Of a stretch of 64,000 nucleotides of DNA, positions 9,535 through 57,868 are shown piece after piece (position 1 is the stretch's first letter; the number at the start of each line of letters is the position of its first letter). Source of the stretch: Escherichia coli. Its GTDB lineage: Bacteria > Pseudomonadota > Gammaproteobacteria > Enterobacterales > Enterobacteriaceae. Both the position numbers and the translations under genes were made by a program. The notes beneath the pieces are model-generated. The model made no database searches. It saw nothing but the letters and a program-made list of their open reading frames with translations, and was not told the origin of the DNA. The DNA lies in assembly GCF_001677475.2 (NCBI RefSeq), contig NZ_CP015229.1, one strand, 5' to 3'.

Positions 9535-12088
9535 ACCGGTAGGCGATCTGGTCGTTGATTTGAGTCTGGATGCGGCCAGATTTGACGAGCAGATGGCCAG
9601 AGTCAGGCGTCATTTTTCCGGTACGGAAAGTGATGCGAAAAAAACAGCGGCAGTCGTTGAACAGTCGCTGAGCCGACAGGTGCTGGCTGCACAGAAAGCG
9701 GGGATTTCCGTCGGGCAGTATAAAGCCGCCATGCGTATGCTGCCTGCACAGTTCACCGACGTGGCCACGCAGCTTGCAGGCGGGCAAAGTCCGTGGCTGA
9801 TCCTGCTGCAACAGGGGGGGCAGGTGAAGGACTCCTTCGGCGGGATGATCCCCATGTTCAGGGGGCTTGCCGGTGCGATCACTCTGCCGATGGTCGGGGC
9901 CACCTCGCTGGCGGTGGCGACCGGTGCGCTGGCGTATGCCTGGTATCAGGGCAACTCAACCCTGTCCGATTTCAACAAAACGCTGGTCCTTTCCGGCAAT
10001 CAGGCGGGACTGACGGCAGATCGTATGCTGGTCCTGTCCAGAGCCGGGCAGGCGGCAGGGCTGACGTTTAACCAGACCAGCGAGTCACTCAGCGCACTGG
10101 TTAAGGCGGGGGTAAGCGGTGAGGCTCAGATTGCGTCCATCAGCCAGAGTGTGGCGCGTTTCTCCTCTGCATCCGGCGTGGAGGTGGACAAGGTCGCTGA
10201 AGCCTTCGGGAAGCTGACCACAGACCCGACGTCGGGGCTGACGGCGATGGCACGCCAGTTCCATAACGTGACGGCGGAGCAGATTGCGTATGTTGCTCAG
10301 TTGCAGCGTTCCGGCGATGAAGCCGGGGCATTGCAGGCGGCGAACGAGGCCGCAACGAAAGGGTTTGATGACCAGACCCGCCGCCTGAAAGAGAACATGG
10401 GCACGCTGGAGACCTGGGCAGACAGGACTGCGCGGGCATTCAAATCCATGTGGGATGCGGTGCTGGATATTGGTCGTCCTGATACCGCGCAGGAGATGCT
10501 GATTAAGGCAGAGGCTGCGTTTAAGAAAGCAGACGACATCTGGAATCTGCGCAAGGATGATTATTTTGTTAACGATGAAGCGCGGGCGCGTTACTGGGAT
10601 GATCGTGAAAAGGCCCGTCTTGCGCTTGAAGCCGCCCGAAAGAAGGCTGAGCAGCAGACTCAACAGGACAAAAATGCGCAGCAGCAGAGCGATACCGAAG
10701 CGTCACGGCTGAAATATACCGAAGAGGCGCAGAAGGCTTACGAACGGCTGCAGACGCCGCTGGAGAAATATACCGCCCGTCAGGAAGAACTGAACAAGGC
10801 ACTGAAAGACGGGAAAATCCTGCAGGCGGATTACAACACGCTGATGGCGGCGGCGAAAAAGGATTATGAAGCGACGCTGAAAAAGCCGAAACAGTCCGGC
10901 GTGAAGGTGTCTGCGGGCGATCGTCAGGAAGACAGTGCTCATGCTGCCCTGCTGACGCTTCAGGCAGAACTCCGGACGCTGGAGAAGCATGCCGGAGCGA
11001 ATGAGAAAATCAGCCAGCAGCGCCGGGATTTGTGGAAGGCAGAAAGTCAGTTCGCGGTACTGGAGGAGGCGGCACAACGTCGCCAGCTGTCCGCACAGGA
11101 GAAATCCCTGCTGGCGCATAAAGATGAGACGCTGGAGTACAAACGCCAGCTGGCTGCACTTGGCGACAAGGTTACGTATCAGGAGCGCCTGAACGCGCTG
11201 GCGCAGCAGGCGGATAAATTCGCACAGCAGCAACGGGCAAAACGGGCCGCCATTGATGCGAAAAGCCGGGGGCTGACTGACCGGCAGGCAGAACGGGAAG
11301 CCACGGAACAGCGCCTGAAGGAACAGTATGGCGATAATCCGCTGGCGCTGAATAACGTCATGTCAGAGCAGAAAAAGACCTGGGCGGCTGAAGACCAGCT
11401 TCGCGGGAGCTGGATGGCAGGCCTGAAGTCCGGCTGGAGTGAGTGGGAAGAGAGCGCCACGGACAGTATGTCGCAGGTAAAAAGTGCAGCCACGCAGACC
11501 TTTGATGGTATTGCACAGAATATGGCGGCGATGCTGACCGGCAGTGAGCAGAACTGGCGCAGCTTCACCCGTTCCGTGCTGTCCATGATGACAGAAATTC
11601 TGCTTAAGCAGGCAATGGTGGGGATTGTCGGGAGTATCGGCAGCGCCATTGGCGGGGCTGTTGGTGGCGGCGCATCCGCGTCAGGCGGTACAGCCATTCA
11701 GGCCGCTGCGGCGAAATTCCATTTTGCAACCGGAGGATTTACGGGAACCGGCGGCAAATATGAGCCAGCGGGGATTGTTCACCGTGGTGAGTTTGTCTTC
11801 ACGAAGGAGGCAACCAGCCGGATTGGCGTGGGGAATCTTTACCGGCTGATGCGCGGCTATGCCACCGGCGGTTATGTCGGTACACCGGGCAGCATGGCAG
11901 ACAGCCGGTCGCAGGCGTCCGGGACGTTTGAGCAGAATAACCATGTGGTGATTAACAACGACGGCACGAACGGGCAGATAGGTCCGGCTGCTCTGAAGAC
12001 GGTGTATGACATGGCCCGCAAGGGTGCCCGTGATGAAATTCAGACACAGATGCGTGATGGTGGCCTGTTCTCCGGAGGTGGACGATGA
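9527..12088 (+). CDS. Tail tape measure protein H-like
   Basis: 853 aa, identical in length to lambda H; coiled-coil Ala/Gln-rich middle. Confidence 0.95.
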   Translation: MAEPVGDLVVDLSLDAARFDEQMARVRRHFSGTESDAKKTAAVVEQSLSRQVLAAQKAGISVGQYKAAMRMLPAQFTDVATQLAGGQSPWLILLQQGGQVKDSFGGMIPMFRGLAGAITLPMVGATSLAVATGALAYAWYQGNSTLSDFNKTLVLSGNQAGLTADRMLVLSRAGQAAGLTFNQTSESLSALVKAGVSGEAQIASISQSVARFSSASGVEVDKVAEAFGKLTTDPTSGLTAMARQFHNVTAEQIAYVAQLQRSGDEAGALQAANEAATKGFDDQTRRLKENMGTLETWADRTARAFKSMWDAVLDIGRPDTAQEMLIKAEAAFKKADDIWNLRKDDYFVNDEARARYWDDREKARLALEAARKKAEQQTQQDKNAQQQSDTEASRLKYTEEAQKAYERLQTPLEKYTARQEELNKALKDGKILQADYNTLMAAAKKDYEATLKKPKQSGVKVSAGDRQEDSAHAALLTLQAELRTLEKHAGANEKISQQRRDLWKAESQFAVLEEAAQRRQLSAQEKSLLAHKDETLEYKRQLAALGDKVTYQERLNALAQQADKFAQQQRAKRAAIDAKSRGLTDRQAEREATEQRLKEQYGDNPLALNNVMSEQKKTWAAEDQLRGSWMAGLKSGWSEWEESATDSMSQVKSAATQTFDGIAQNMAAMLTGSEQNWRSFTRSVLSMMTEILLKQAMVGIVGSIGSAIGGAVGGGASASGGTAIQAAAAKFHFATGGFTGTGGKYEPAGIVHRGEFVFTKEATSRIGVGNLYRLMRGYATGGYVGTPGSMADSRSQASGTFEQNNHVVINNDGTNGQIGPAALKTVYDMARKGARDEIQTQMRDGGLFSGGGR

Positions 12089-14490: not shown

Positions 14491-15919
14491 ATGGGTAAAG
14501 GAAGCAGTAAGGGGCATACCCCGCGCGAAGCGAAGGACAACCTGAAGTCCACGCAGTTGCTGAGTGTGATCGATGCCATCAGCGAAGGGCCGGTTGAAGG
14601 TCCGGTGGATGGATTAAAAAGCGTGCTGCTGAACAGTACGCCGGTGCTGGACACTGAGGGGAATACCAACATCTCCGGTATCACGGTGGTGTTCCGTGCC
14701 GGTGAGCAGGAGCAGACACCGCCGGAGGGGTTTGAATCCTCCGGCTCCGAGACGGTGCTGGGTACGGAAGTGAAATATGACACGCCGATCACCCGCACCA
14801 TTACGTCTGCAAACATCGACCGTCTGCGCTTTACCTTCGGTGTACAGGCACTGGTGGAAACCACCTCAAAGGGTGACAGGAATCCGTCGGAAGTCCGTCT
14901 GCTGGTTCAGATACAACGTAACGGTGGCTGGGTGACGGAAAAAGACATCACCATTAAGGGCAAAACCACCTCGCAGTATCTGGCCTCGGTGGTGGTGGAT
15001 AACCTGCCGCCGCGCCCGTTTAATATCCGGATGCGCAGGATGACGCCGGACAGCACCACAGACCAGCTGCAGAACAAAACGCTCTGGTCGTCATACACCG
15101 AAATTATCGATGTGAAACAGGGCTACCCGAACACGGCACTGGTCGGCGTGCAGGTGGACTCGGAGCAGTTCGGCAGCCAGCAGGTGAGCCGTAATTATCA
15201 TCTGCGCGGGCGTATTCTGCAGGTGCCGTCGAATTATAACCCGCAGACGCGGCAATACAGCGGTATCTGGGACGGAACGTTTAAACCGGCATACAGCAAC
15301 AACATGGCCTGGTGTCTGTGGGATATGCTGACCCATCCGCGCTACGGCATGGGGAAACGTCTTGGTGCGGCGGATGTGGACAAATGGGCGCTGTATGTCA
15401 TCGGCCAGTACTGCGACCAGTCAGTACCGGACGGCTTTGGCGGCACGGAGCCGCGCATCACCTGTAATGCATACCTGACCACACAGCGCAAGGCGTGGGA
15501 TGTGCTCAGTGATTTCTGCTCGGCGATGCGCTGTATGCCGGTATGGAACGGGCAGACGCTGACGTTCGTGCAGGACCGACCATCAGATAAGGTGTGGACC
15601 TATAACCGCAGTAATGTGGTGATGCCGGATGATGGCGCGCCGTTCCGCTACAGCTTCAGCGCCCTGAAGGACCGCCATAATGCCGTTGAGGTGAACTGGA
15701 TTGACCCGAACAACGGCTGGGAGACGGCGACAGAGCTTGTTGAAGATACGCAGGCCATTGCCCGTTACGGTCGTAATGTCACGAAGATGGATGCCTTTGG
15801 CTGTACCAGCCGGGGGCAGGCACACCGCGCCGGGCTGTGGCTGATTAAAACGGAACTGCTGGAGACGCAGACCGTGGATTTCAGCGTGGGTGCTGAAGGG
15901 CTTCGCCATGTACCGGGTA
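14491..15919 (+). pseudogene. Tip attachment / host specificity protein J, N-terminal fragment, interrupted by an IS
   Basis: ORF 14491..15933 is collinear with lambda J through ...GLRHVPG, then runs into IS sequence and stops. Confidence 0.85.
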
Positions 15920-16010
15920 TGAGACGACAATAACTCAGTCCGCCTGGCGCCGATTATTCTGGCCGGTTTTGTAACCTGAGTGTCATTTACATGATCCAAC
16001 AGGAAATGGC

Positions 16011-17510
16011 GTGACGCTCAATACTTCTCAGGTCAGTTACTATATGACTCAGCGTAAGAAAGGTATAACTCAGCATATCTCGGCCATGAAGGCTGGTATC
16101 TCAGTCCGTTCTGGTCGTCGGATCGAAAAAGGAGAGTGGGCAAAAAACAGTGTTCGGCACTGGCGCACACGCAAAGATCCTCTGGAAGCTGTGTGGGACA
16201 GCATGCTTGTTCCTCTGTTGAAAGAGAGGCCGGCTCTGACACCAACAACTCTACTGGAGATGCTACAGGATAAATATCCCGGCCAGTACCCCAACAGCCT
16301 TCGAAGAACAATGCAACGGCGGGTTCGCGAATGGAAACTACAGTATGGTACAGAGCAGGAGGTCATGTTCCGCCAGCAACATCAGCCCGGCCTGCGAGGC
16401 CTGTCGGACTTTACTGAACTGAAAGGTGTAGTTGTCACCATCGCCGGTAAGTTGTTGGCGCATAAGTTGTATCACTTCCGTCTGGAATGGAGCCACTGGA
16501 GCTGGATGCGGGTTGTTCTGGGTGGTGAGAGCTTCTCTGCTCTGGCTGAAGGCCTGCAGGAAGCCCTCGGACAACTGGGCGGAGTGCCGGTAGAACATAA
16601 AACGGACAGCCTGAGGGCAGCATGGAAACAACAGGGCGAAGATGGACGCCGCGAGCTGACTGAGCGTTATGCTACTCTCTGTCAGCACTACGGAATGCAG
16701 GGCGTACACAATAATGCCGGTCGGGGCCACGAAAATGGCTCGGTTGAAAGTGCCCACGGACATCTGAAAAGGCGTATCTGTCAGGCGCTGATACTGCGGG
16801 GCAGTAACGACTTCAGCACCATAGAAGAATATCAGGCCTTCATCACTCAGCAGGTTATGCGGCACAACCGTAACAATCAGGATCTGGTCAAGGAAGAACG
16901 TCTTCATCTGAAACCGCTGCCGCTTCGTCGCAGTGCTGACTATGATGAGCTGACTGTGAGGGTTAGTCGCAGCAGTACCATCAATGTGAAGCACGTCGTC
17001 TACAGCGTACCTTCCCGGCTTGTAGGTCAACTGTTACGGGTCAGGTTATGGGACGATCGTCTGAGCTGTTACGTTGGCAGCAGCGAGGTCATGAGCTGCC
17101 CTCGCGTCAGACCAGAAAAAGGGAAGACGCGGGCCCGTCGTATCGACTTCCGACATGTGATCGACAGTCTGGCAAAAAAGCCCGGTGCGTTCTGCCATGC
17201 AACGCTGAGAAATGACATCCTGCCGGACGATGAATGGCGGAGGCTGTGGCGTCGCTTATGTAATCATCTGGAGCCCGATATGGCAGGAAGGCTGATGGTA
17301 CATGCCCTGAAACTGGCTGCAGGATACGACGATATCTCAGTCGTGGCAAAAGGTATGGAGCAGATGCTGAATACCCCGGGAAACGTGGATCTGCACCGGC
17401 TGATGCGCTTCCTGGGTATAAAAGAAAAGGCGTTGCCGGTAGTCAATGTGATACAGCATAACCTGAGCAGTTATGAGCAACTACTGCGTGGCAAGGGAGG
17501 TTCGCAGTGA
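16011..17510 (+). CDS. istA: IS21-family transposase IstA
   Basis: 499 aa; N-terminal HTH-like region plus DDE core; overlaps istB by 4 nt. Confidence 0.85.
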   Translation: MTLNTSQVSYYMTQRKKGITQHISAMKAGISVRSGRRIEKGEWAKNSVRHWRTRKDPLEAVWDSMLVPLLKERPALTPTTLLEMLQDKYPGQYPNSLRRTMQRRVREWKLQYGTEQEVMFRQQHQPGLRGLSDFTELKGVVVTIAGKLLAHKLYHFRLEWSHWSWMRVVLGGESFSALAEGLQEALGQLGGVPVEHKTDSLRAAWKQQGEDGRRELTERYATLCQHYGMQGVHNNAGRGHENGSVESAHGHLKRRICQALILRGSNDFSTIEEYQAFITQQVMRHNRNNQDLVKEERLHLKPLPLRRSADYDELTVRVSRSSTINVKHVVYSVPSRLVGQLLRVRLWDDRLSCYVGSSEVMSCPRVRPEKGKTRARRIDFRHVIDSLAKKPGAFCHATLRNDILPDDEWRRLWRRLCNHLEPDMAGRLMVHALKLAAGYDDISVVAKGMEQMLNTPGNVDLHRLMRFLGIKEKALPVVNVIQHNLSSYEQLLRGKGGSQ

Positions 17511-18262
17511 GCAATATCCATCACCTTGAACATAGCCTGCGTAAACTACGCCTGACACGAGTTGGAGCTGAATGGCACGCTCTGGAAAAACGAGCGCTGG
17601 CAGAAGGCTGGACACCATCGCGCTATCTTCTGACGCTATGCAATGAAGAACTCCTGTGGCGCGAGAGTGAAAAACTGCGTCGTTATAAAAAGGAGGCCCG
17701 GTTGCCAGTTGCCAAAACGCTGAGCGAATACGACTTCAGTCAGGTGCCGGAACTGAATGGAGCTCAGTTCCGGCAACTCTGTGAAACGACAGACTGGGTT
17801 GATGCAGGAGAAAACGTTCTGCTGTTCGGAGCCAGCGGGTTGGGGAAAAGCCATCTGGCGGCAGCGATCGTGGATGGCGTAGTAGGTCAGGGCTACCGGG
17901 CCCGGTTCTACAGCGCAGGAGAGCTGTTGCAGGAACTACGTAAAGCCAGAGCTCAGTTGAAACTGAATGAGCTGCTACTGAAACTGGATCGCTACCGGGT
18001 GATAGTGGTGGATGATCTTGGCTATGTCAAACGCGATAGTGCCGAAACGGGTGTGCTGTTCGAGTTAATAGCGCATCGCTATGAACGTGGGAGCCTGGTG
18101 ATAACCAGTAACCATCCGTTCAGCATGTGGGGCAGCATCTTCGTGGATGAGACTATGGCGGTGGCTGCGGCAGACAGGCTGATCCATCACGGATATATGT
18201 TCGAACTGAAAGGGGAAAGCTACAGGAAAAAGACAGCGAAGGCAGTAACAAGCGCGACTTGA
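17507..18262 (+). CDS. istB: IS21-family helper ATPase IstB
   Basis: 251 aa; Walker A GASGLGKSH and Walker B VIVVDDLGY. Confidence 0.9.
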   Translation: MSNIHHLEHSLRKLRLTRVGAEWHALEKRALAEGWTPSRYLLTLCNEELLWRESEKLRRYKKEARLPVAKTLSEYDFSQVPELNGAQFRQLCETTDWVDAGENVLLFGASGLGKSHLAAAIVDGVVGQGYRARFYSAGELLQELRKARAQLKLNELLLKLDRYRVIVVDDLGYVKRDSAETGVLFELIAHRYERGSLVITSNHPFSMWGSIFVDETMAVAAADRLIHHGYMFELKGESYRKKTAKAVTSAT

Positions 18263-18325
18263 TGTCGCCCTGAAGGGTGCGGCCAGTATAGTTGGCGCGA
18301 GTCGGCAAAACTAGTTGACGTCTAA

Positions 18326-20320
18326 TAACCGGGCGATGTCATTGAAATCTGCGATGATGACTATGCCGGTATCAGCACCGGTGGTCGCGTGCTGGCGGTG
18401 AACAGCCAGACCCGGACGCTGACGCTCGACCGTGAAATCACGCTGCCATCCTCCGGTACCACGCTGATAAGCCTGGTTGACGGAAGTGGTAATCCGGTCA
18501 GCGTGGAGGTTCAGTCCGTCACCGACGGACTTAAGGTGAAAGTGAACCGGGTTCCTGACGGCGTTGCAGAATACAGCGTGTGGGGGCTGAAGCTGCCGAC
18601 GCTGCGCCAGCGCCTGTTCCGCTGCGTGAGTATCCGTGAGAACGACGACGGCACGTATGCCATCACTGCCGTGCAGCATGTACCGGAAAAAGAAGCCATC
18701 GTGGATAACGGGGCGCACTTTGACGGCGACCAGAGCGGCACGGTGAATGGTGTCACGCCGCCAGCGGTGCAGCACCTGACCGCCGAAGTCACCGCAGACA
18801 GCGGGGAATATCAGGTGCTGGCGCGCTGGGACACGCCGAAGGTGGTGAAGGGCGTGAGCTTCCTGCTCCGTCTGACCGTAACAGCGGATGACGGCAGTGA
18901 GCGGCTGGTCAGCACGGCCCGGACGACGGAAACCACATACCGCTTCACGCAACTGGCGCTGGGGAACTACAGGCTGACAGTCCGGGCGGTAAATGCGTGG
19001 GGGCAGCAGGGCGATCCGGCGTCGGTATCGTTCCGGATTGCCGCACCGGCAGCACCGTCGAGGATTGAGCTGACGCCGGGCTATTTTCAGATAACCGCCA
19101 CGCCGCATCTTGCCGTTTATGACCCGACGGTACAGTTTGAGTTCTGGTTCTCGGAAAAGCGGATTACCGATATCAGGCAGGTTGAAACCACAGCCCGCTA
19201 TCTTGGTACGGCGCTGTACTGGATAGCCGCCAGTATCAATATCAAACCGGGCCATGATTATTACTTTTATATCCGCAGTGTGAACACCGTTGGCAAATCG
19301 GCATTCGTGGAGGGCGTCGGTCGGGCGAGCGATGATGCGGAAGGTTACCTGGATTTTTTCAAAGGCAAGATAACCGAATCCCATCTCGGTAAAGAGCTGC
19401 TGGAAAAAGTTGATTTGACGGAGGATAACGCCAGCAGACTGGATGAGTTTTCGAAAGAGTGGAAGGACGCTAACGATAAATGGAATGCCATGTGGGGCGT
19501 CAAAATTGAGCAGACCAAAGACGGCAAACATTATGTCGCGGGTATTGGCCTCAGCATGGAGGACACGGAGGAAGGCAAGCTGAGCCAGTTTCTGGTTGCC
19601 GCTAACCGTATCGCGTTTATTGACCCGGCAAACGGGAATGAAACGCCGATGTTTGTGGCGCAGGGCAACCAGATATTCATGAACGACGTGTTCCTGAAGC
19701 GCCTGACAGCCCCCACCATTACCAGCGGTGGCAGTCCTCCGGTATTTTCCCTGACATCAGACGGAAAGCTGACCGCTAAAAATGCGGATATCAGTGGTAG
19801 TGTGAATGCGAACTCAGGAACGCTCAACAATGTCACGATTAACCAGAACTGTACGATTAAGGGCATGCTGGAGGCGACTCAGGTCAGAGGTGACTTCGTT
19901 AAAGCTGTATCCAAATCATTTCCGAAACAGGCTGGTACGTGGGGTAACACGGAAACACCAAACGGGACGGTTACAGTCACCATCAGCGATGATCATAACT
20001 TTGACCGTCAAATCATTATTCCGCCCATTATCTTTAACGGAATAGCGTATAGCGATCCGGGAAGTGGTAATAACCCGGGAGGTACAAGATACACGGGTTA
20101 TGGTTTTGAAGTTCGCAAAAACGGTGTATTAATCGCATCCAGAGAAACTAAAGGGGCCATTCCCGGTAGCTACAGTGCGGTTATTGATATGCCGAGTGGC
20201 AGGGGAAGCGTCACTCTGGAGTTTAAGGTTTTCCATAAAGGCAATCAGTGGGCAGGTAATATCACCGACTGTACGGTGATTGTGACCAAAAAAGCCGCTT
20301 CCGGCATCAGTATTCGTTGA
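18326..20320 (+). pseudogene. Tip attachment / host specificity protein J, C-terminal fragment
   Basis: Frame continues the lambda J sequence ([13 protein letters not shown]...) directly after the IS; ORF 18389..20320 covers most of it. Confidence 0.85.
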
Positions 20321-21053: not shown

Positions 21054-23993
21054 ATGGCAGTAAAGATTTCAGGTGTACTGAAAGACGGCACAGGAAAACC
21101 GGTACAGAACTGCACAATCCAGCTGAAAGCAAAACGTAACAGCACCACGGTGGTGGTGAACACGCTGGCCTCAGAAAATCCGGATGAAGCCGGGCGTTAT
21201 AGCATGGACGTTGAGTACGGTCAGTACAGCGTTATTCTGTTGGTGGAAGGATGCCCGCCGTCACATGCCGGGACCATCACCGTGTATGAAGATTCCCGAC
21301 CCGGTACGCTGAATGATTTTCTCGGTGCCATGACGGAGGATGATGCCCGTCCGGAGGCTCTGCGCCGTTTTGAACTGATGGTGGAAGAGGTGGCGCGTAA
21401 CGCGTCCGCGGTGGCACAGAACACGGCAGCCGCGAAGAAGTCAGCCGGCGATGCCGGCACATCTGCCCGTGAGGCGGCAACCCATGCGACTGATGCTGCA
21501 GATTCAGCACGTGCAGCCAGCACGTCAGCCGGACAGGCCGCGACGTCAGCTCAGGAGGCTTTTTCCTGCGCAGGAACGGCATCAGCAAAAGCCTCTGAGG
21601 CATCAAAAAGTGCTGCCGCTGCAGAGTCCTCAAAAAGCGCGGCGGCCACCAGTGCCGGTGCCGCGAAAACGTCTGAAACGAATGCTGCAGCGTCACAACA
21701 ATCAGCAGCCACTTCTGCATCCACCGCGACCACGAAAGCGTCAGAAGCTGCCACCTCAGCCCGGGATGCGTCGGCTTCAAAAGAGGCGGCAAAATCATCA
21801 GAAACGAGCGCAGCCTCGAGCGCAAGTAGTTCCGCTTCCTCGGCAACAGCGGCAGCAAATTCTGCGAAGGCGGCAAAAACGTCCGAGACGAACGCCAGGT
21901 CTTCTGAAACGGCAGCGGAACAGAGCGCCTCAGCTGCGGCAGGTTCAGAAACTACCGCTGCATCATCAGCCCGTGAGGCGTCAGTCAAAGCGGAGGAGGC
22001 TGCAGCCAGTGCCACTGCCGCCGGAAAATCGGCAGAAAGCGCCGCATCATCCGCTTCAACAGCCACAACGAAGGCTGGCGAAGCCACTGAACAGGCCAGC
22101 GCAGCAGCGAGGTCAGCTTCCGCAGCGAAGACATCCGAAACGAACGCGAAAGCGTCGGAAACCAGCGCAGAATCCTCAAAAACGGCTGCCGCATCGTCCG
22201 CCAGTTCGGCGGCGTCATCGGCCTCATCGGCGTCTGCTTCAAAAGATGAGGCGACCAGACAAGCGTCAGCAGCGAAGGGCAGCGCCACGACGGCATCCAC
22301 GAAGGCAACAGAGGCTGCTGGCAGTGCGACGGCGGCAGCACAGAGCAAAAGTACGGCGGAATCCGCGGCAACGCGCGCCGAGACAGCGGCAAAACGGGCA
22401 GAGGATATTGCATCCGCCGTGGCGCTTGAGGATGCGAGCACGACGAAAAAGGGGATAGTACAGCTCAGCAGTGCGACCAACAGCACTTCCGAGTCACAGG
22501 CGGCAACGCCAAAGGCAGTAAAAGCAGCCAATGACAATGCTGAGAAACGTCTGCAGAAAGATCAGAACGGTGCGGATATCCCTGGCAAAGACACCTTTAC
22601 GAAAAATATTGGTGCCTGCCGTGCCTTCGGTGGGTCAGTAAGCACAACAACAGGAAACTGGACGACTGCACAGTTTATCGAGTGGCTGGATTCTCAGGGA
22701 GCATTTAACCATCCATACTGGATGTGCAAGGGTTCCTGGTCTTATGGCAATAATAAAATCATTACTGATACTGGCTGCGGTAATATTCATCTCGCCGGAG
22801 CTGTCATTGAAGTAATGGGGATAAAGTCAGCGATGACGATCCGCATTACCACTCCGACTACATCCAGCGGTGGCGGAACAACCAACGCCCAGTTTACCTA
22901 TATTAATCACGGAACAGATTATTCACCTGGCTGGCGAAGGGACTATAACTCCAGAAATAAGCCAACGGCATCAGAGATCGGGGCGCTACCGTCAGGTGGA
23001 ACAGCAGTATCATCAGTTAATCTGGCTTCAAAAGGTCGGGTAGCCGCGCTGACAGACAATACGCAGGGGGCAGCAGGTCTTGAGTTATACGAGGTGTATA
23101 ACAACGGATATCCAACAGCGTATGGAAATATCATTCACCTGAAAGGGATGACAGCCGTTGGCGAAGGTGAGTTACTCATCGGCTGGAGTGGTACAAGCGG
23201 TGCTCATGCTCCGGCATTTATTCGTTCACGACGGGATACGACCGACGCAAACTGGTCGCCGTGGGCGCAGCTTTACACCTCGGCTCATCCTCCTGCAGAG
23301 TTTTATCCAGTCGGTGCACCAATCCCGTGGCCATCAGATACCGTTCCGTCTGGCTATGCCCTGATGCAGGGGCAGACTTTTGACAAATCTGCATACCCGA
23401 AACTTGCAGCGGCTTATCCGTCAGGCGTTATTCCTGATATGCGTGGCTGGACGATTAAGGGCAAGCCCGCCAGTGGTCGTGCCGTATTGTCTCAGGAACA
23501 GGACGGCATTAAATCGCACACCCACAGCGCCAGCGCATCCAGTACGGATTTGGGGACGAAAACCACATCGTCGTTTGATTACGGCACTAAATCCACGAAT
23601 AACACCGGTGCGCATACCCATAGTTTAAGTGGCAGCACGAATGCGGCTGGTAATCACAGCCATAGAGATGGCCGTCGATTTAACCCCAGTGTTTTTAAAG
23701 ATACTTATCAATATGGTTATACAAGCTCAGGTCAAAATACCTGGGGGGTACAAGGCTCAGTAGGTATGTCTACGGGGTGGTTAGCTAATACCAGTACAGA
23801 TGGTAATCATAGCCACTCACTGTCCGGTACAGCAGTATCTGCAGGTGCACACGCGCATACTGTCGGTATTGGTGCTCATACGCACTCCGTTGCGATAGGG
23901 TCACATGGACACACCATCACCGTTAACGCTGCTGGTAACGCGGAAAACACCGTCAAAAACATCGCATTTAACTATATTGTGAGGCTTGCATGA
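21054..23993 (+). CDS. stf: Side tail fibre protein Stf-like
   Basis: 979 aa; N-terminus matches the lambda Stf N-terminal domain; long Ala/Ser/Thr-rich repeat shaft; C-terminal His-x-His repeats. Confidence 0.9.
21380..22450. repeat. Low-complexity Ala/Ser/Thr/Glu-rich repeat region inside stf
   Basis: Roughly 350 codons of degenerate SAA/TSE/AAK repeats; GC-rich and free of stops in several frames. Confidence 0.6.
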
Positions 23994-24892
23994 TTACGCT
24001 CATTCTTTCTGCACCAGTAACAGAAATGGCTGAAGCATTTAAGCGGGTATTCGCAAATGCAGATAATGTGAATATTGTCGGAAAGCCATTTGAAACAATC
24101 AGGGAATTTGACTGCATGGTAAGTGCGGCAAACAGTTTCGGCCTGATGGATGGCGGTGTTGATGCCGCCATTACCGCATTCTTCGGTACTCAGTTACAGT
24201 CCCGCGTTCAGAATCATATTCTTCGTGAATATCTCGGCGAGCAGCCTGTAGGTTCTGCATTTGTTATTGAAACGGGGCATAATCATCATCCCTGGCTGGT
24301 ACATGCGCCAACAATGCGTGTTCCGCTGACAATTGACGGAACAGACGCTGTATATAACGCAACCTGGGCCGCTCTGCTTGCCATCTTTCAGCACAATAAA
24401 CACGCAACGACAGACAGGAAAATAAAAACGGTGGTATTCCCTGCAATGGGAGCCGGATGTGGTCAGGTGCCGTTTGAAAGTGTTGCCCGGCAGATGAAGC
24501 AGGCATGGGATAACTTTAATAAAAAAACAGAATCAATTAACTGGGAATACGCACAATCCCGCCAGTCGGCAGTATTTGGCACATATGCATACTGTCCGGG
24601 TAATTCTGTTTGCCGTTATGCGGATACTAAATATATTGGATGCGGCGATTATCGGACGTATTGCTCACGTTCCGGGCAGGTCTGTATTAACCCTGAACAT
24701 CAGGCTGATGATGTACTGATACAACATCAGGCTAATAACCGGTTTCGCCCTGGTTCGCATATACACCGGATTAATCCAGAAAATCCCGTAGGTAATGTCA
24801 TCTCTGGCGCACATAGCCACGGAAGTAGCATCGTTATTGGTGCTCACACCCATACGCTCAATAAACAATATTCTGTCTCTGATATTAAGTAG
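23990..24892 (+). CDS. Protein with macrodomain-like N-terminus (putative ADP-ribose binding/hydrolase) and Cys/His-rich fibre-tip-like C-terminus
   Basis: 300 aa; start overlaps the stf stop (ATGA); motifs [18 protein letters not shown] and [12 protein letters not shown] resemble the two macrodomain signature blocks; C-terminal GSHIH, GAHSHG, GAHTHT repeats. Confidence 0.6.
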
Positions 24893-24900
24893 AGGTGAAC

Positions 24901-25476
24901 ATGGATTTCAGAATGAGTGAACAACCACGGACCATAACAATTTATAATCTGCTGGCCGGAACTAATGAATTTATTGGTGAAGGTGATGCATATATTCCGC
25001 CTCATACAGGTCTGCCAGCAAACAGTACCGATATTGCACCGCCAGATATTCCGGCTGGCTTTGTGGCTGTTTTCAACAGTGATGAGGCATCGTGGCATCT
25101 CGTTGAAGACCATCGGGGTAAAACCGTCTATGACGTGGCTTCCGGCGACGCGTTATTTATTTCTGAACTTGGCCCATTACCGGAAAATGTCACTTGGTTA
25201 TCCCCGGAAGGGGAGTTTCAGAAGTGGAACGGCACAGCCTGGGTGAAGGATACGGAAGCAGAAAAACTGTTCCGGATCCGGGAGGCGGAAGAAACAAAAA
25301 ACAACCTGATGCAGGTAGCCAGTGAGCATATTGCGCCGCTTCAGGATGCTGCAGATCTGGAAATTGCAACGGAGGAAGAAATCTCGTTGCTGGAAGCATG
25401 GAAAAAGTATCGGGTATTGCTGAACCGTGTTGATACGTCAACTGCACAGGATATTGAATGGCCAGCACTGCCGTAG
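24901..25476 (+). CDS. tfa: Tail fibre assembly protein Tfa-like
   Basis: Collinear with lambda Tfa ([75 protein letters not shown]...). Confidence 0.9.
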
Positions 25477-26810: not shown

Positions 26811-27385
26811 TGCAATATTGTATGTCTGATTCAGGATATGTTGACTTATACATCGGTTTTGTCCGGGTTATTGGATATGCCAATCCCTAATTTTATTAGA
26901 GCATGACCAAAAATGCTGAATATGATAAGTAGTGAAGTGATTATCAGTATGCTGTTCATATAGCCTCGAATTAGTATGGTGTTATATATAATATAGTTGA
27001 CAATTTTTATCCTGGGTGTTCTTAAAGTTCGTAGATGAACCCTGTAGTTTCAGGTATACAGGAATGCTTACAGATAGCGGCAAAAGTCAGGAGGTTAATG
27101 GCGCAAACTGAAGGGGTAGCTGCGAACTAACTTAGGTAGAGACTCTACACGGATTCGGTTTAAAAGTATACATAGATAACAATTTTTATCTGAAGAAGAA
27201 AAATATTAAGGTGATATGGTCATATATACTTTAATGCGGAAGAATGAATGTGATGAGAGTGCTGTATCTGAATGGTTGAAAAACCGCAGACACGTCGTAT
27301 GCAAGAACGTGCTGCGGTTGGCTGGTGAACTTCCGATAGTGCGAGTATTGAATGATTTCCAGCCGTTACCGATTTTACGTGTTAA

Positions 27386-27634
27386 TTAGTGAACAAACCA
27401 CTCGTCAGCAGACTCCCAGGTATCTTTCAGAGTTTCCTGAACAAAAGTTTTAGCTGAATCTTTATCGGCGGTGCGCGTAACAGAAAGGCCATCGTTGCTG
27501 GTGGCTTTTACGATCACCTCTACATCGTCATAACGCTTACTGATGCGTCGAGTTAATTCTTCCTTTAACGCATCCACAGCACCGTTTGGCATTTTAGTCA
27601 TTTTCTCTTTGGCTATGCAGATCTCAATACGCAT
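27386..27634 (-). CDS. DinI-family protein (prophage-encoded DinI-like)
   Basis: 82 aa; MRIE..IAK...GA.DAL..EL.RRI and C-terminal [10 protein letters not shown] match the DinI family. Confidence 0.85.
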
Positions 27635-27647
27635 AAAAATCCCTCTA

Positions 27648-27695
27648 CACTGTGTTTGTATACAGTGTTATTTTTAACTGTATGAATAAACAGTG
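27648..27695 (-). promoter_or_regulatory. Two tandem LexA (SOS) boxes upstream of the dinI-like gene
   Basis: cACTGTgtttgtatACAGTg (27648-27667) and aaCTGTatgaataaACAGtg (27676-27695); both fit CTGT-N8-ACAG. Confidence 0.6.
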
Positions 27696-27853
27696 TCAAT
27701 AGAACAAAGATTGCTGCATGTACAAATGTTCTTTGGCTACAAATACACCTACTGATCATGTTCTGCTATGCTCTGATACCTCCAAAATGTACAATCAGCG
27801 GCATGAATTTTTCTTTGTACATATGATTGTACATAATCAAAGAGACAACAATT

Positions 27854-29440
27854 ATGACAAGCCTTTTGGCCGCAGAGGTAGCGAAAAGAAGAACCTTTGC
27901 AATTATTTCTCACCCGGACGCCGGTAAAACAACCATCACCGAGAAGGTGCTGCTGTTCGGACAGGCCATTCAGACCGCCGGTACAGTAAAAGGCCGTGGC
28001 TCTAACCAGCACGCTAAGTCGGACTGGATGGAGATGGAAAAGCAGCGTGGGATCTCCATTACCACGTCTGTGATGCAGTTTCCGTATCACGACTGCCTGG
28101 TTAACCTGCTCGACACCCCGGGGCACGAAGACTTCTCGGAAGATACCTATCGTACTCTGACGGCGGTGGACTGCTGCCTGATGGTTATCGACGCTGCAAA
28201 AGGTGTTGAAGATCGTACCCGCAAGCTGATGGAAGTTACCCGTCTGCGCGACACGCCGATCCTCACCTTTATGAACAAACTTGACCGTGATATCCGCGAC
28301 CCGATGGAGCTGCTCGATGAAGTTGAGAACGAGCTGAAAATCGGCTGTGCACCGATCACCTGGCCGATTGGCTGCGGCAAGCTGTTTAAAGGCGTTTACC
28401 ACCTTTATAAAGATGAAACCTATCTTTATCAGAGCGGTAAAGGCCACACCATTCAGGAAGTCCGCATTGTTAAAGGGCTGAATAACCCGGATCTCGATGC
28501 TGCGGTTGGTGAAGATCTGGCGCAGCAGCTGCGTGACGAACTGGAACTGGTGAAAGGCGCGTCTAACGAGTTCGACAAAGAGCTGTTCCTTGCGGGCGAA
28601 ATCACTCCGGTATTCTTCGGTACTGCGCTGGGTAACTTCGGCGTTGATCATATGCTGGATGGCCTGGTGGAGTGGGCCCCTGCGCCGATGCCGCGTCAGA
28701 CTGATACCCGTACCGTAGAGGCGAGCGAAGACAAATTTACCGGCTTCGTATTTAAAATTCAGGCCAACATGGACCCGAAACACCGCGACCGCGTGGCGTT
28801 TATGCGTGTGGTGTCCGGTAAATATGAAAAAGGCATGAAGCTGCGCCAGGTGCGTACTGCGAAAGATGTGGTGATCTCCGACGCGCTGACCTTTATGGCG
28901 GGTGACCGTTCGCACGTTGAAGAAGCGTATCCTGGCGATATCCTCGGCCTGCACAACCACGGCACCATTCAGATCGGCGACACCTTTACCCAGGGTGAGA
29001 TGATGAAGTTCACCGGTATTCCGAACTTCGCGCCAGAACTGTTCCGTCGTATCCGCCTGAAAGATCCGCTGAAGCAAAAACAGCTGCTTAAAGGGCTGGT
29101 ACAGCTTTCCGAAGAGGGCGCGGTGCAGGTGTTCCGTCCGATCTCCAACAACGATCTGATCGTTGGTGCGGTTGGTGTGCTGCAGTTTGATGTGGTGGTA
29201 GCGCGTCTGAAGAGCGAATACAACGTTGAAGCAGTGTATGAGTCAGTCAACGTTGCCACTGCCCGCTGGGTAGAATGTGCGGACGCGAAGAAATTCGAAG
29301 AGTTCAAGCGTAAGAACGAAAGCCAACTGGCGCTTGATGGCGGCGATAACCTCGCTTACATCGCTACCAGCATGGTCAATCTGCGCCTGGCGCAGGAACG
29401 TTATCCGGACGTTCAGTTCCACCAGACCCGCGAGCATTAA
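27854..29440 (+). CDS. prfC: Peptide chain release factor 3
   Basis: GTPase motifs [24 protein letters not shown]; full-length collinear RF3; start at the ATG at 27854 inside ORF 27827..29440. Confidence 0.95.
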
Positions 29441-57658: not shown

Positions 57659-57868
57659 AAAATATCCTCATCCTTTCAACAACGAGCACCTGACATCAGG
57701 TAATTGGATAATAGCATTTTTTGCTGTTTTAGCATTCAGTGTTTTTTTCTTAGTAGAGTATGTTTTAGGGCTTGACGGAAATAAAAGTATTGAGATTTTG
57801 TTCTTAATCAATATGTTATTTACCGTGACGAACTAATTGCTCGTGTAATAGATAAAAATGGTAACAAT

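Follow-up and report, generated by a model that had tools for sequence, protein, structure and literature searches.

A probable LexA-repressed dinI-like cargo gene with a conserved structured 3' end at the prfC attachment site of an Escherichia coli prophage

Introduction

Genes of the DinI family are found both on enterobacterial chromosomes and in prophages. In Salmonella, the dinI homologues of the Gifsy prophages are induced by DNA damage, their protein accumulates and the LexA-box region is needed (PMC3121763); a transcriptome study reports an induction of 5- to 23-fold (PMC8072944). In Klebsiella pneumoniae, chromatin immunoprecipitation (ChIP) shows LexA occupancy at the chromosomal dinI gene, and a functional RNA, DinR, is processed from the dinI mRNA's 3' end, this mRNA being under LexA control (PMC10907235). 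Here, we analyze a DinI-like gene located in a 64,000-nt stretch of Escherichia coli DNA (contig NZ_CP015229.1), referred to below as the window, where it lies at the end of a lambdoid prophage integrated into prfC. We propose that this gene, together with its own promoter and terminator, probably makes up a cargo gene, or 'moron', that is complete in itself and repressed by LexA, spanning ~420 bp (27279-27699, minus strand) at the prophage's attR end.

The protein of the window resembles E. coli K-12 DinI in fold family, approximate length, MRIE N-terminus, C-terminal WESAD(D/E)WF helix and eight RecA-contact residues, and both genes have a LexA-boxed promoter. K-12 dinI, in contrast, is chromosomal, has a single box in its orthologues versus two here, is followed by a different 3' untranslated region (UTR) and encodes a protein that is 49% identical to that of the window. 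The dinI genes of Gifsy-1 to Gifsy-3 are likewise prophage-borne DinI homologues, with a LexA box nearly the same as the proximal box (box 1) of the window: the Gifsy-1 box, CTGTGTTTATATACAG, is located 19 nt from the ATG and is followed by the ribosome-binding site GTAGAGGGA, as in the window. They differ in being 42.5% identical, in lying in the early region instead of at attR and in having one box. Furthermore, in the dinI-gfoA/gftA units dinI is followed by an antirepressor gene as well as irsA within a single operon, which is therefore needed for induction, whereas the unit in the window is monocistronic. The Klebsiella dinI-DinR pair provides a precedent for a LexA-controlled dinI mRNA with a functional RNA in its 3' part, but DinR is chromosomal and Klebsiella-specific, and has no sequence similarity to the element of the window.

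The closest relatives are published phage copies. The same gene is present at the map end of phages 2H10, cdtI, mEp460, CP-1639, VT1-Sakai (H0001) and many phages encoding Shiga toxin (Stx1/Stx2), with proteins that are 94-100% identical, and at the map end of BP-4795 (60%). These copies are annotated as DinI or DNA-damage-inducible protein, and the gene itself is no different from that of the window. It is a well-supported, ordinary and widespread addition to the known LexA-controlled prophage DinI homologues, annotated as DinI-like in thousands of genomes. As such, the finding has little impact, being a predictable addition to the SOS regulon; only a 3' element in the same unit could raise interest. 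This 100-nt element, and not the protein, is the most conserved part of the cassette, and it occurs in none of the RNA family libraries and genome annotations searched. Our literature search found no paper on the LexA dependence, the two-operator promoter or the 3' element of the E. coli/Stx-phage cassette. In an array study, a 'dinI-like' probe (c0943) moved with SOS genes (PMC2817434), but it could not be tied to the subfamily of the window.

Results and discussion

The DinI-like protein

The DinI-like coding sequence (CDS; 27386-27634, minus strand, stop codon included) encodes 82 aa and was delineated from the list of open reading frames (ORFs) and from Pfam, PDB and PHROG matches. Its product matches Pfam family PF06183 (DinI) over profile positions 1-63 of 63 (E 1.2e-19, 70.8 bits versus a cut-off of 24.2), E. 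coli DinI in the PDB (1GHH/7YWA; E 7.9e-13) and PHROG 189, 'RecA filament binding protein DinI' (E 4e-31), which bears out the family assignment made in a first-pass annotation of this DNA. The score against the NCBIfam DinI equivalog model (NF007893) is 72.5 bits and thus below the cut-off of 111. On its sequence, the protein is a member of a paralogous 'DinI-like' branch and not the chromosomal dinI product.

In the cryo-EM study of the RecA-DinI complex, the DinI residues identified as making contact and determining function form a hydrophobic pocket (L13, L21, W71, W77 and F78) and an acidic patch (E24, E69 and D76) (PMC9926225). Alignment places M15, L23, W73, W79 and F80, and E26, D71 and E78 of the window protein at these positions. 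All eight contact residues are kept, five identically and three by conservative replacement (L13M, E69D and D76E). The 82-aa product most likely binds the RecA filament groove, judging from this alignment, and would stabilise RecA filaments or, at high dose, damp the co-protease function by which these promote cleavage of UmuD, LexA and CI-type repressors. Set free early through LexA cleavage, it could at such a dose compete with UmuD and CI-type repressors. In Salmonella, prophage induction was unchanged after deletion of the Gifsy dinI homologues (PMC3121763).

A promoter overlapped by two LexA operators

The best promoter-like site of the region lies directly upstream of this gene on the minus strand. 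It consists of a perfect -35 hexamer, TTGACA (27694-27699), with which the conserved cassette begins at its outer side, and, after a 17-bp spacer, a -10-like hexamer, TAAAAA (27671-27676), that the promoter scan suggests as its partner. An alternative -10-like hexamer is AAAAAT (27670-27675) with an 18-bp spacer, and related promoters carry an equivalent TAAAWA. The distal LexA box (box 2), AACTGTATGAATAAACAGTG on the plus strand (27676-27695, core 27678-27693), occupies 16 of the 17 spacer bases; it scores 23.9 bits and has a heterology-like index of about 4.5. The proximal box (box 1), CACTGTGTTTGTATACAGTG on the plus strand (27648-27667, core 27650-27665; 19.2 bits), begins five bases after TAAAAA and covers the transcription start, the position of which is a prediction only. 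A ribosome-binding site, GAGGGA (27640-27645, minus strand), follows 5 nt before the ATG. Box 1 is separated from the ATG at 27634 by 15 nt and the far edge of box 2 lies 59 nt upstream of it, so that the tandem CTGT-N8-ACAG boxes annotated earlier at 15-60 bp upstream of the start codon are indeed present. A terminator-like call on the plus strand at 27647-27668 was discarded as an artefact of the box 1 palindrome adjoining the A/T-rich -10 region.

The number of CTGT-N8-ACAG matches in the window (three, versus 0.76 expected) is by itself weak evidence, since 3 of 100 shuffled sequences reach it. Their arrangement is more telling: two of the matches are 28 bp apart in the promoter, and the only other one, at 11579, is unrelated. 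From the density in the window, two matches in one given 60-bp stretch are estimated to be expected ~1e-7 to 1e-6 times. We also scanned all 20-mers of the 64 kb with an approximate LexA matrix built from 25 K-12 operators (training range 12.8-27.5 bits). Box 2 and box 1 rank first and second, both within the range of the 25 operators, and the next-best site reaches 14.2 bits.

Two further LexA-like sequences were noted. A weak site, TGCTGTTTTAGCATTCAGTG (57722-57741), reaches 13.7 bits, which is at the low end of what real operators score; judging by the sizes of the flanking ORFs, it is located in a spacer with a rob-like ORF on one side and a creA-like ORF on the other. In the twin prophage of strain M114 described below, the CI-like repressor gene contains a well-formed, A/T-centred CTGT-N8-ACAG sequence, CTGTATGTAAAAACAG (L001:42959-42974), possibly by chance.

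Conservation of the promoter and spread of the cassette

A survey with one genome per species returned 80 DinI-family loci. The loci closest to the window protein (56-99% identity), which come from E. coli, Citrobacter, Pantoea, Trabulsiella, Mixta, Erwinia and two assemblies of doubtful label, mostly show the order TTGACA, box, A/T-rich hexamer, box. Chromosomal dinI orthologues (at most 51% identity, about 60 species), in contrast, mostly have a single box 33-41 nt before the ATG. Several MsgA-like DinI-family genes, whose products are ~30% identical to the window protein, also have the layout of TTGACA and two boxes. When 12 two-box promoters from six genera were aligned, including that of BP-4795 and with proteins down to 58% identical, TTGA-AC and the CTG/CAG arms of both boxes were invariant, whereas the box interiors, the inter-box distance (24-28 bp), the flanks and everything upstream varied. 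This is the pattern that selection for LexA binding would be expected to leave. Since the spacing varies, helical phasing between two LexA dimers does not seem to be strictly required.

Among loci of the same type as the window, both boxes are retained in all 73 that have enough upstream sequence, with a 28-bp spacing in 72, and these loci represent 10 different upstream contexts. In 80 viral-contig loci with a protein that is 98-100% identical, similarity starts exactly at the -35 hexamer and stops just past the terminator hairpin, with at least 10 unrelated contexts on each side. The cassette, scored as a match to at least 80% of a 431-bp query, is carried by 1512 of the 5426 complete E. coli genomes; up to nine places per genome match the query when partial copies and a fossil copy between ykgJ and ecpE are included. 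Several strongly promoted, tightly repressed copies in one cell could, through their dosage, change the threshold at which, or the time when, prophages (Shiga-toxin phages among them) are induced and SOS mutagenesis sets in.

Proposed SOS control

The LexA box of E. coli has the form CTG-N10-CAG, with TACTG(TA)5CAGTA as its consensus, and LexA represses by promoter occlusion. LexA control of the window gene is very likely, as the first-pass annotation had predicted, given the quality of the operators, their placement in a near-consensus promoter, the kept arms and the likeness of box 1 to the Gifsy-1 box. In an undamaged cell, LexA dimers on the two operators, one in the spacer and one at the predicted start, would exclude RNA polymerase. 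Upon DNA damage, RecA filaments would trigger LexA self-cleavage and the promoter would fire, in line with the SOS paradigm and the homologous Gifsy promoters. The resulting monocistronic mRNA would be ~385 nt long and end at a hairpin and U-run at 27279-27319.

The cassette has its own promoter and terminator, lies on the strand opposite to the late operon and has no ORF between its stop codon and the terminator. It thus has the appearance of a host-type SOS gene that is carried by the prophage without being part of the lytic programme or wired to prfC, and it would fire on LexA cleavage irrespective of prophage induction. The earlier statement that the gene is induced with the prophage therefore holds in part: induction by DNA damage is what we predict as well, but the coupling to the prophage is imprecise, since the unit is autonomous, the CI repressor of the twin prophage has its own S24 self-cleavage domain and the window prophage has its gpJ gene interrupted by an IS21-family element.

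Some points weigh against a LexA-repressed DinI gene as the full account of the cassette. The -10 hexamer TAAAAA lacks the usual final T and the transcription start is only predicted. Given the 49% identity and the score below the equivalog cut-off, the effect of the protein on RecA could differ from that of DinI. Finally, the 3' UTR is more conserved than the CDS, and hence the protein is possibly not the sole or main payload.

A conserved two-hairpin element in the 3' UTR

The 3' UTR contains a conserved element of 100 nt (27279-27378, minus strand), delimited by folding, conservation and covariation. It comprises a leader, GTAAAATCGGTAAC (27365-27378), a first hairpin (27320-27364) with stem GGCUGG/CCAGCC and the invariant loop core CAUUCAAUACUCGCACUAUCG (27334-27354), a second hairpin (27284-27319) with the conserved loop UUCUUGCAUACGA, and a run of five U's (27279-27283), all on the minus strand. 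The U-run behind the GC-rich hairpin 2 indicates that this hairpin acts here as an intrinsic terminator (27319-27279), ending the unit ~107 nt past the stop codon. A 128-nt stretch spanning the 3' UTR folds with -31.9 kcal/mol (z -3.6).

When the window is compared with relatives at 60-72% protein identity, the identity is 45% at third codon positions, which are essentially saturated, and 43-52% over the first 21 nt past the stop codon, whereas it is 85% (40/47) over the next 47 nt, the hairpin-1 region. An initial RNAalifold analysis of a 17-sequence alignment detected hairpin 1, with no covariation, but not hairpin 2, the 3' arm being misaligned through bulges; this was resolved by folding each variant separately and by using a wider set of 84 distinct variants. 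The loop of hairpin 2 is kept and its stem varies freely, yet pairs in all variants. For the 7-bp stem of hairpin 1, 90% of cells in the 84 variants are paired and five of the seven pairs show double changes, for instance G-C to A-U in 27 variants. The covariation score of this stem is 0.213, versus 0.131±0.008 after shuffling (0/500) and at most 0.104 with a slid partner; the 84 sequences are related and not independent, so that these statistics overstate the significance and are not probabilities. The invariance of the 21-nt core in this set is by construction, as the core served as the search pattern. The dinI strand is slightly preferred when G-U pairs and folding energies are considered. 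As in a 3'-UTR-derived small RNA, the conserved structured 3' end shares the terminator of the mRNA.

A 101-nt query detects the element in 5412 of the 5426 complete E. coli genomes; the median number of copies is 3, the maximum 11, and none of them lies under an annotated feature. The invariant 21-mer CATTCAATACTCGCACTATCG matches at least 120 viral contigs; among the matches listed, 99 loci were testable, and a window-type DinI gene lies upstream in only ~40% of these. Other copies follow MsgA-like DinI-family genes (MFVELVYDKR..., ~30% identical), several of which have TTGACA and two LexA boxes. The element also follows a P4-like integrase gene and lambda int-attP-sib, and it directly adjoins an ssrA-type attachment site. 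In K-12, the element stands alone at the left end of Qin, between the ydfJ remnant and ynfT (MG1655 ~1,632,480-1,632,580; L289:3470-3580), and further copies were found in L168, L183, L213 and L216. Nearly all E. coli also carry a decayed dinI-like gene with the element between ykgJ and ecpE. In this fossil (L083:2380-2780, with the element at 2501-2652, and L084:2380-2780 in C600 and BL21, L288 in MG1655), the element is ~94% and the coding remnant ~80% identical to the window.

Known RNAs do not account for the element. An Rfam search returned no family matching it on its own strand. CssrB (RF02799) was rejected: its hit lies on the opposite strand, shares only hairpin 2 with the element and scores 24 bits, the gathering score being 76; its partial matches lie at 27179-27316 (plus strand, 24 bits) and L289:3534-3671 (minus strand, 19.5 bits). 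The CssrB model ends in the reverse complement of hairpin 2, which suggests that CssrB was defined beside another copy of the cassette. The K-12 small RNA EcsR2 was dismissed because it maps beyond ykgJ, in the yagU-ykgJ spacer, and homology to Klebsiella DinR because the element lacks similarity to the K. pneumoniae dinI 3' UTR. Pairing of loop 1 with the translation start of its own mRNA (UCAAUAC/GUAUUGA) is not supported either: 14% of shuffled sequences do as well as its -21.4 kcal/mol. Lastly, a small ORF on the plus strand (..LAGELPIVRVLNDFQ.., 27216-27389) has no family match, its start and length are not conserved, and MsgA-type variants contain an in-frame stop. The stem changes are non-synonymous in this ORF but compensatory for pairing, which together with its lack of conservation indicates that the element is not coding.

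A possible RNA as the selected product

The alternative that survives best is that the main selected product of the cassette is an RNA: 27279-27378 would be an SOS-induced regulatory or stabilising RNA, either a small RNA derived from the 3' UTR like Klebsiella DinR or a cis element, with the DinI-like ORF being secondary. It is compatible with LexA control, and we regard it as possible, though not the favoured explanation. The high identity of the hairpin-1 region beside saturated codon positions, the covarying first stem, the ever-pairing second hairpin with its conserved loop, the recurrence behind divergent MsgA-like genes with the same two-box promoter and the presence of several copies in almost every E. 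coli genome all fit such an RNA, and processing of DinR from the dinI mRNA 3' end is a precedent (PMC10907235). On the other hand, the element has neither sequence similarity to DinR nor an Rfam family, and it occurs without any DinI gene at the Qin left end, the P4-like integrase gene, lambda int-attP-sib and the ssrA attachment site, so that it is possibly a general module-junction or terminator element. In addition, many copies lack the U-run, the strand preference is only slight, the kinship of the sequences inflates the shuffle statistics and the core is invariant by construction.

The element may thus be an SOS-induced 3'-UTR RNA, a stabilising or processing signal, or a module-junction terminator with an unexplained loop conservation. 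Tentatively, on the first two readings it would be a previously undescribed, widespread structured RNA of ~100 nt that temperate enterobacterial phages, lambdoid ones among them, carry, typically downstream of a DinI-family gene with two LexA operators; it would serve as an SOS-induced regulator or as a stability or processing signal and be the phage counterpart of DinR. If so, most E. coli strains would have several copies of this RNA, including K-12 (Qin left end and ykgJ-ecpE fossil), and a functional RNA would add to the best-studied bacterium a new regulatory element that is linked to SOS and spread by phages.

The attachment site and the rebuilt prfC

Positions 1 to ~27915 of the window comprise the late half and right end of the lambdoid prophage, and prfC (from 27854 on) and ordinary chromosomal genes make up the chromosome side. 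In strain M114, a twin prophage that is 99.7-99.9% identical over the 25.6 kb of common late region sits as a full element between yjjG and prfC. A three-way alignment of the window, native K-12 and the M114 left junction (attL) places the att core, ATTATTTCTCACCC, at 27902-27915 within prfC; the same core is present at the M114 attL. This attR marks the right prophage boundary, and with the DinI-like gene starting 268 bp inward of it, the gene is the last of the prophage, as annotated before.

As the att core lies inside the prfC CDS, the prophage supplies a replacement for everything upstream of it. The phage arm of the attachment site (27700-27853), which has no similarity to the K-12 yjjG-prfC spacer, forms the new prfC upstream region, and the first 16 codons (27854-27901, plus strand; ORF list and three-way alignment) are phage-derived as well. 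The new start is one residue shorter than the native one (16 versus 17 residues) with about six residues changed, and a leftover stub of the native prfC start remains at attL in M114. The re-creation of the prfC 5' end suggested earlier is thus real.

SXT/R391 elements also integrate into the prfC 5' end (PMC2786100). These are conjugative elements and not lambdoid phages. Hochhut and Waldor are said to have described in 1999 that they supply a replacement prfC 5' end and promoter, as does the window prophage; we know of no DinI cassette at an SXT/R391-prfC junction.

With prfC rebuilt in this way, the LexA boxes could serve both divergent units and make prfC SOS-regulated in lysogens, the entire prfC upstream region and first 16 codons being phage-derived and the boxes lying, as noted earlier, within ~160-200 bp (161-204 bp) upstream of the prfC ATG at 27854. 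We consider this very unlikely, and the proposed influence of the boxes on prfC finds no support. The only -10-like hexamers that we see on the prfC strand are weak (TACAAT, 27790-27795; CATAAT, 27832-27837), and the closest edge of a box, at 27693, is 97 bp away from the former and 139 bp from the latter; at ~100 bp or more, an effect of the boxes is unlikely. The promoter scan gives no plus-strand site above threshold and none that overlaps the boxes. Moreover, cassette homology ends exactly at the -35 hexamer of the DinI-like gene, and elsewhere the boxes adjoin 10 unrelated flanks.

The same arm contains the palindrome TGTACA, with the consensus TTGTACAWA, four times within 118 bp (27719-27724, 27788-27793, 27816-27821 and 27828-27833). 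Of the 16 matches to a relaxed form of the motif in the window, 6 cluster in 27717-27835. These are probably sites of the integrase or an accessory protein of the attachment arm, and the cluster overlaps whichever promoter now drives prfC.

Improbable alternatives: an antirepressor module or chance palindromes

A LexA-controlled DinI cassette could also be the SOS trigger of its prophage, acting as an antirepressor module of the type represented by dinI-gfoA in Gifsy and by tum in coliphage 186, in which case the phage would be induced by cleavage of LexA and not of its repressor. LexA-controlled dinI-antirepressor operons are known from Gifsy prophages, Tum has a DinI-like half (PMC3121763) and the PHROG 189 match covers the C-terminal half of a 151-position profile. 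This explanation is nevertheless most improbable and largely refuted. A Gifsy- or 186-type operon was rejected for the window because no ORF follows the gene before the terminator and the product is a single 82-aa DinI domain without an additional N-terminal half; in 186 and PSP3, the DinI part is not where the antirepressor activity resides (PMC3121763). The repressor of the M114 twin is of the CI type with a Peptidase_S24 self-cleavage domain (E 6.6e-19), so that induction of this phage is expected to proceed through RecA-stimulated self-cleavage; as the window does not include the immunity region, the repressor type is judged by the M114 proxy only.

That the palindromes are chance or relic sequences in front of a constitutive or silent gene is scarcely credible: although such a palindrome is expected ~0.76 times per 64 kb, an unrelated one exists at 11579 and the -10 hexamer is imperfect, the top two ranks in the matrix scan, the exact placement within the promoter and the retention of the arms across genera with varying interiors, with both boxes in 73 of 73 loci of this type, speak against it.

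Other features of the prophage

The M114 prophage starts on the left with an integrase gene beside yjjG, followed by the CI-like repressor, replication, lysis, head and tail genes; on the right, a pin-type recombinase, ydfK, a YnaM/YnfT peptide and a 'DinI-like family protein' adjoining prfC complete the element. In the window, the tail-tip gene J is split by a 2.4-kb IS21-family insertion (15918-18327) encoding an IstA-like protein of 499 aa and an IstB of 251 aa between imperfect terminal inverted repeats. The insertion is not present in the M114 prophage, and with J split, the window prophage is defective and cannot form infectious tails.

The tail-fibre assembly gene contains, in its 3' part, a full-length match to Rfam IS009 (RF02111) at 25244-25442 (plus strand; 220.9 bits, gathering score 117). 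An ORF of 300 aa (23990-24892, plus strand) is located between this gene and that of the side tail fibre; its counterpart in the twin prophage is annotated as a macro-domain protein, an unusual cargo at such a position.

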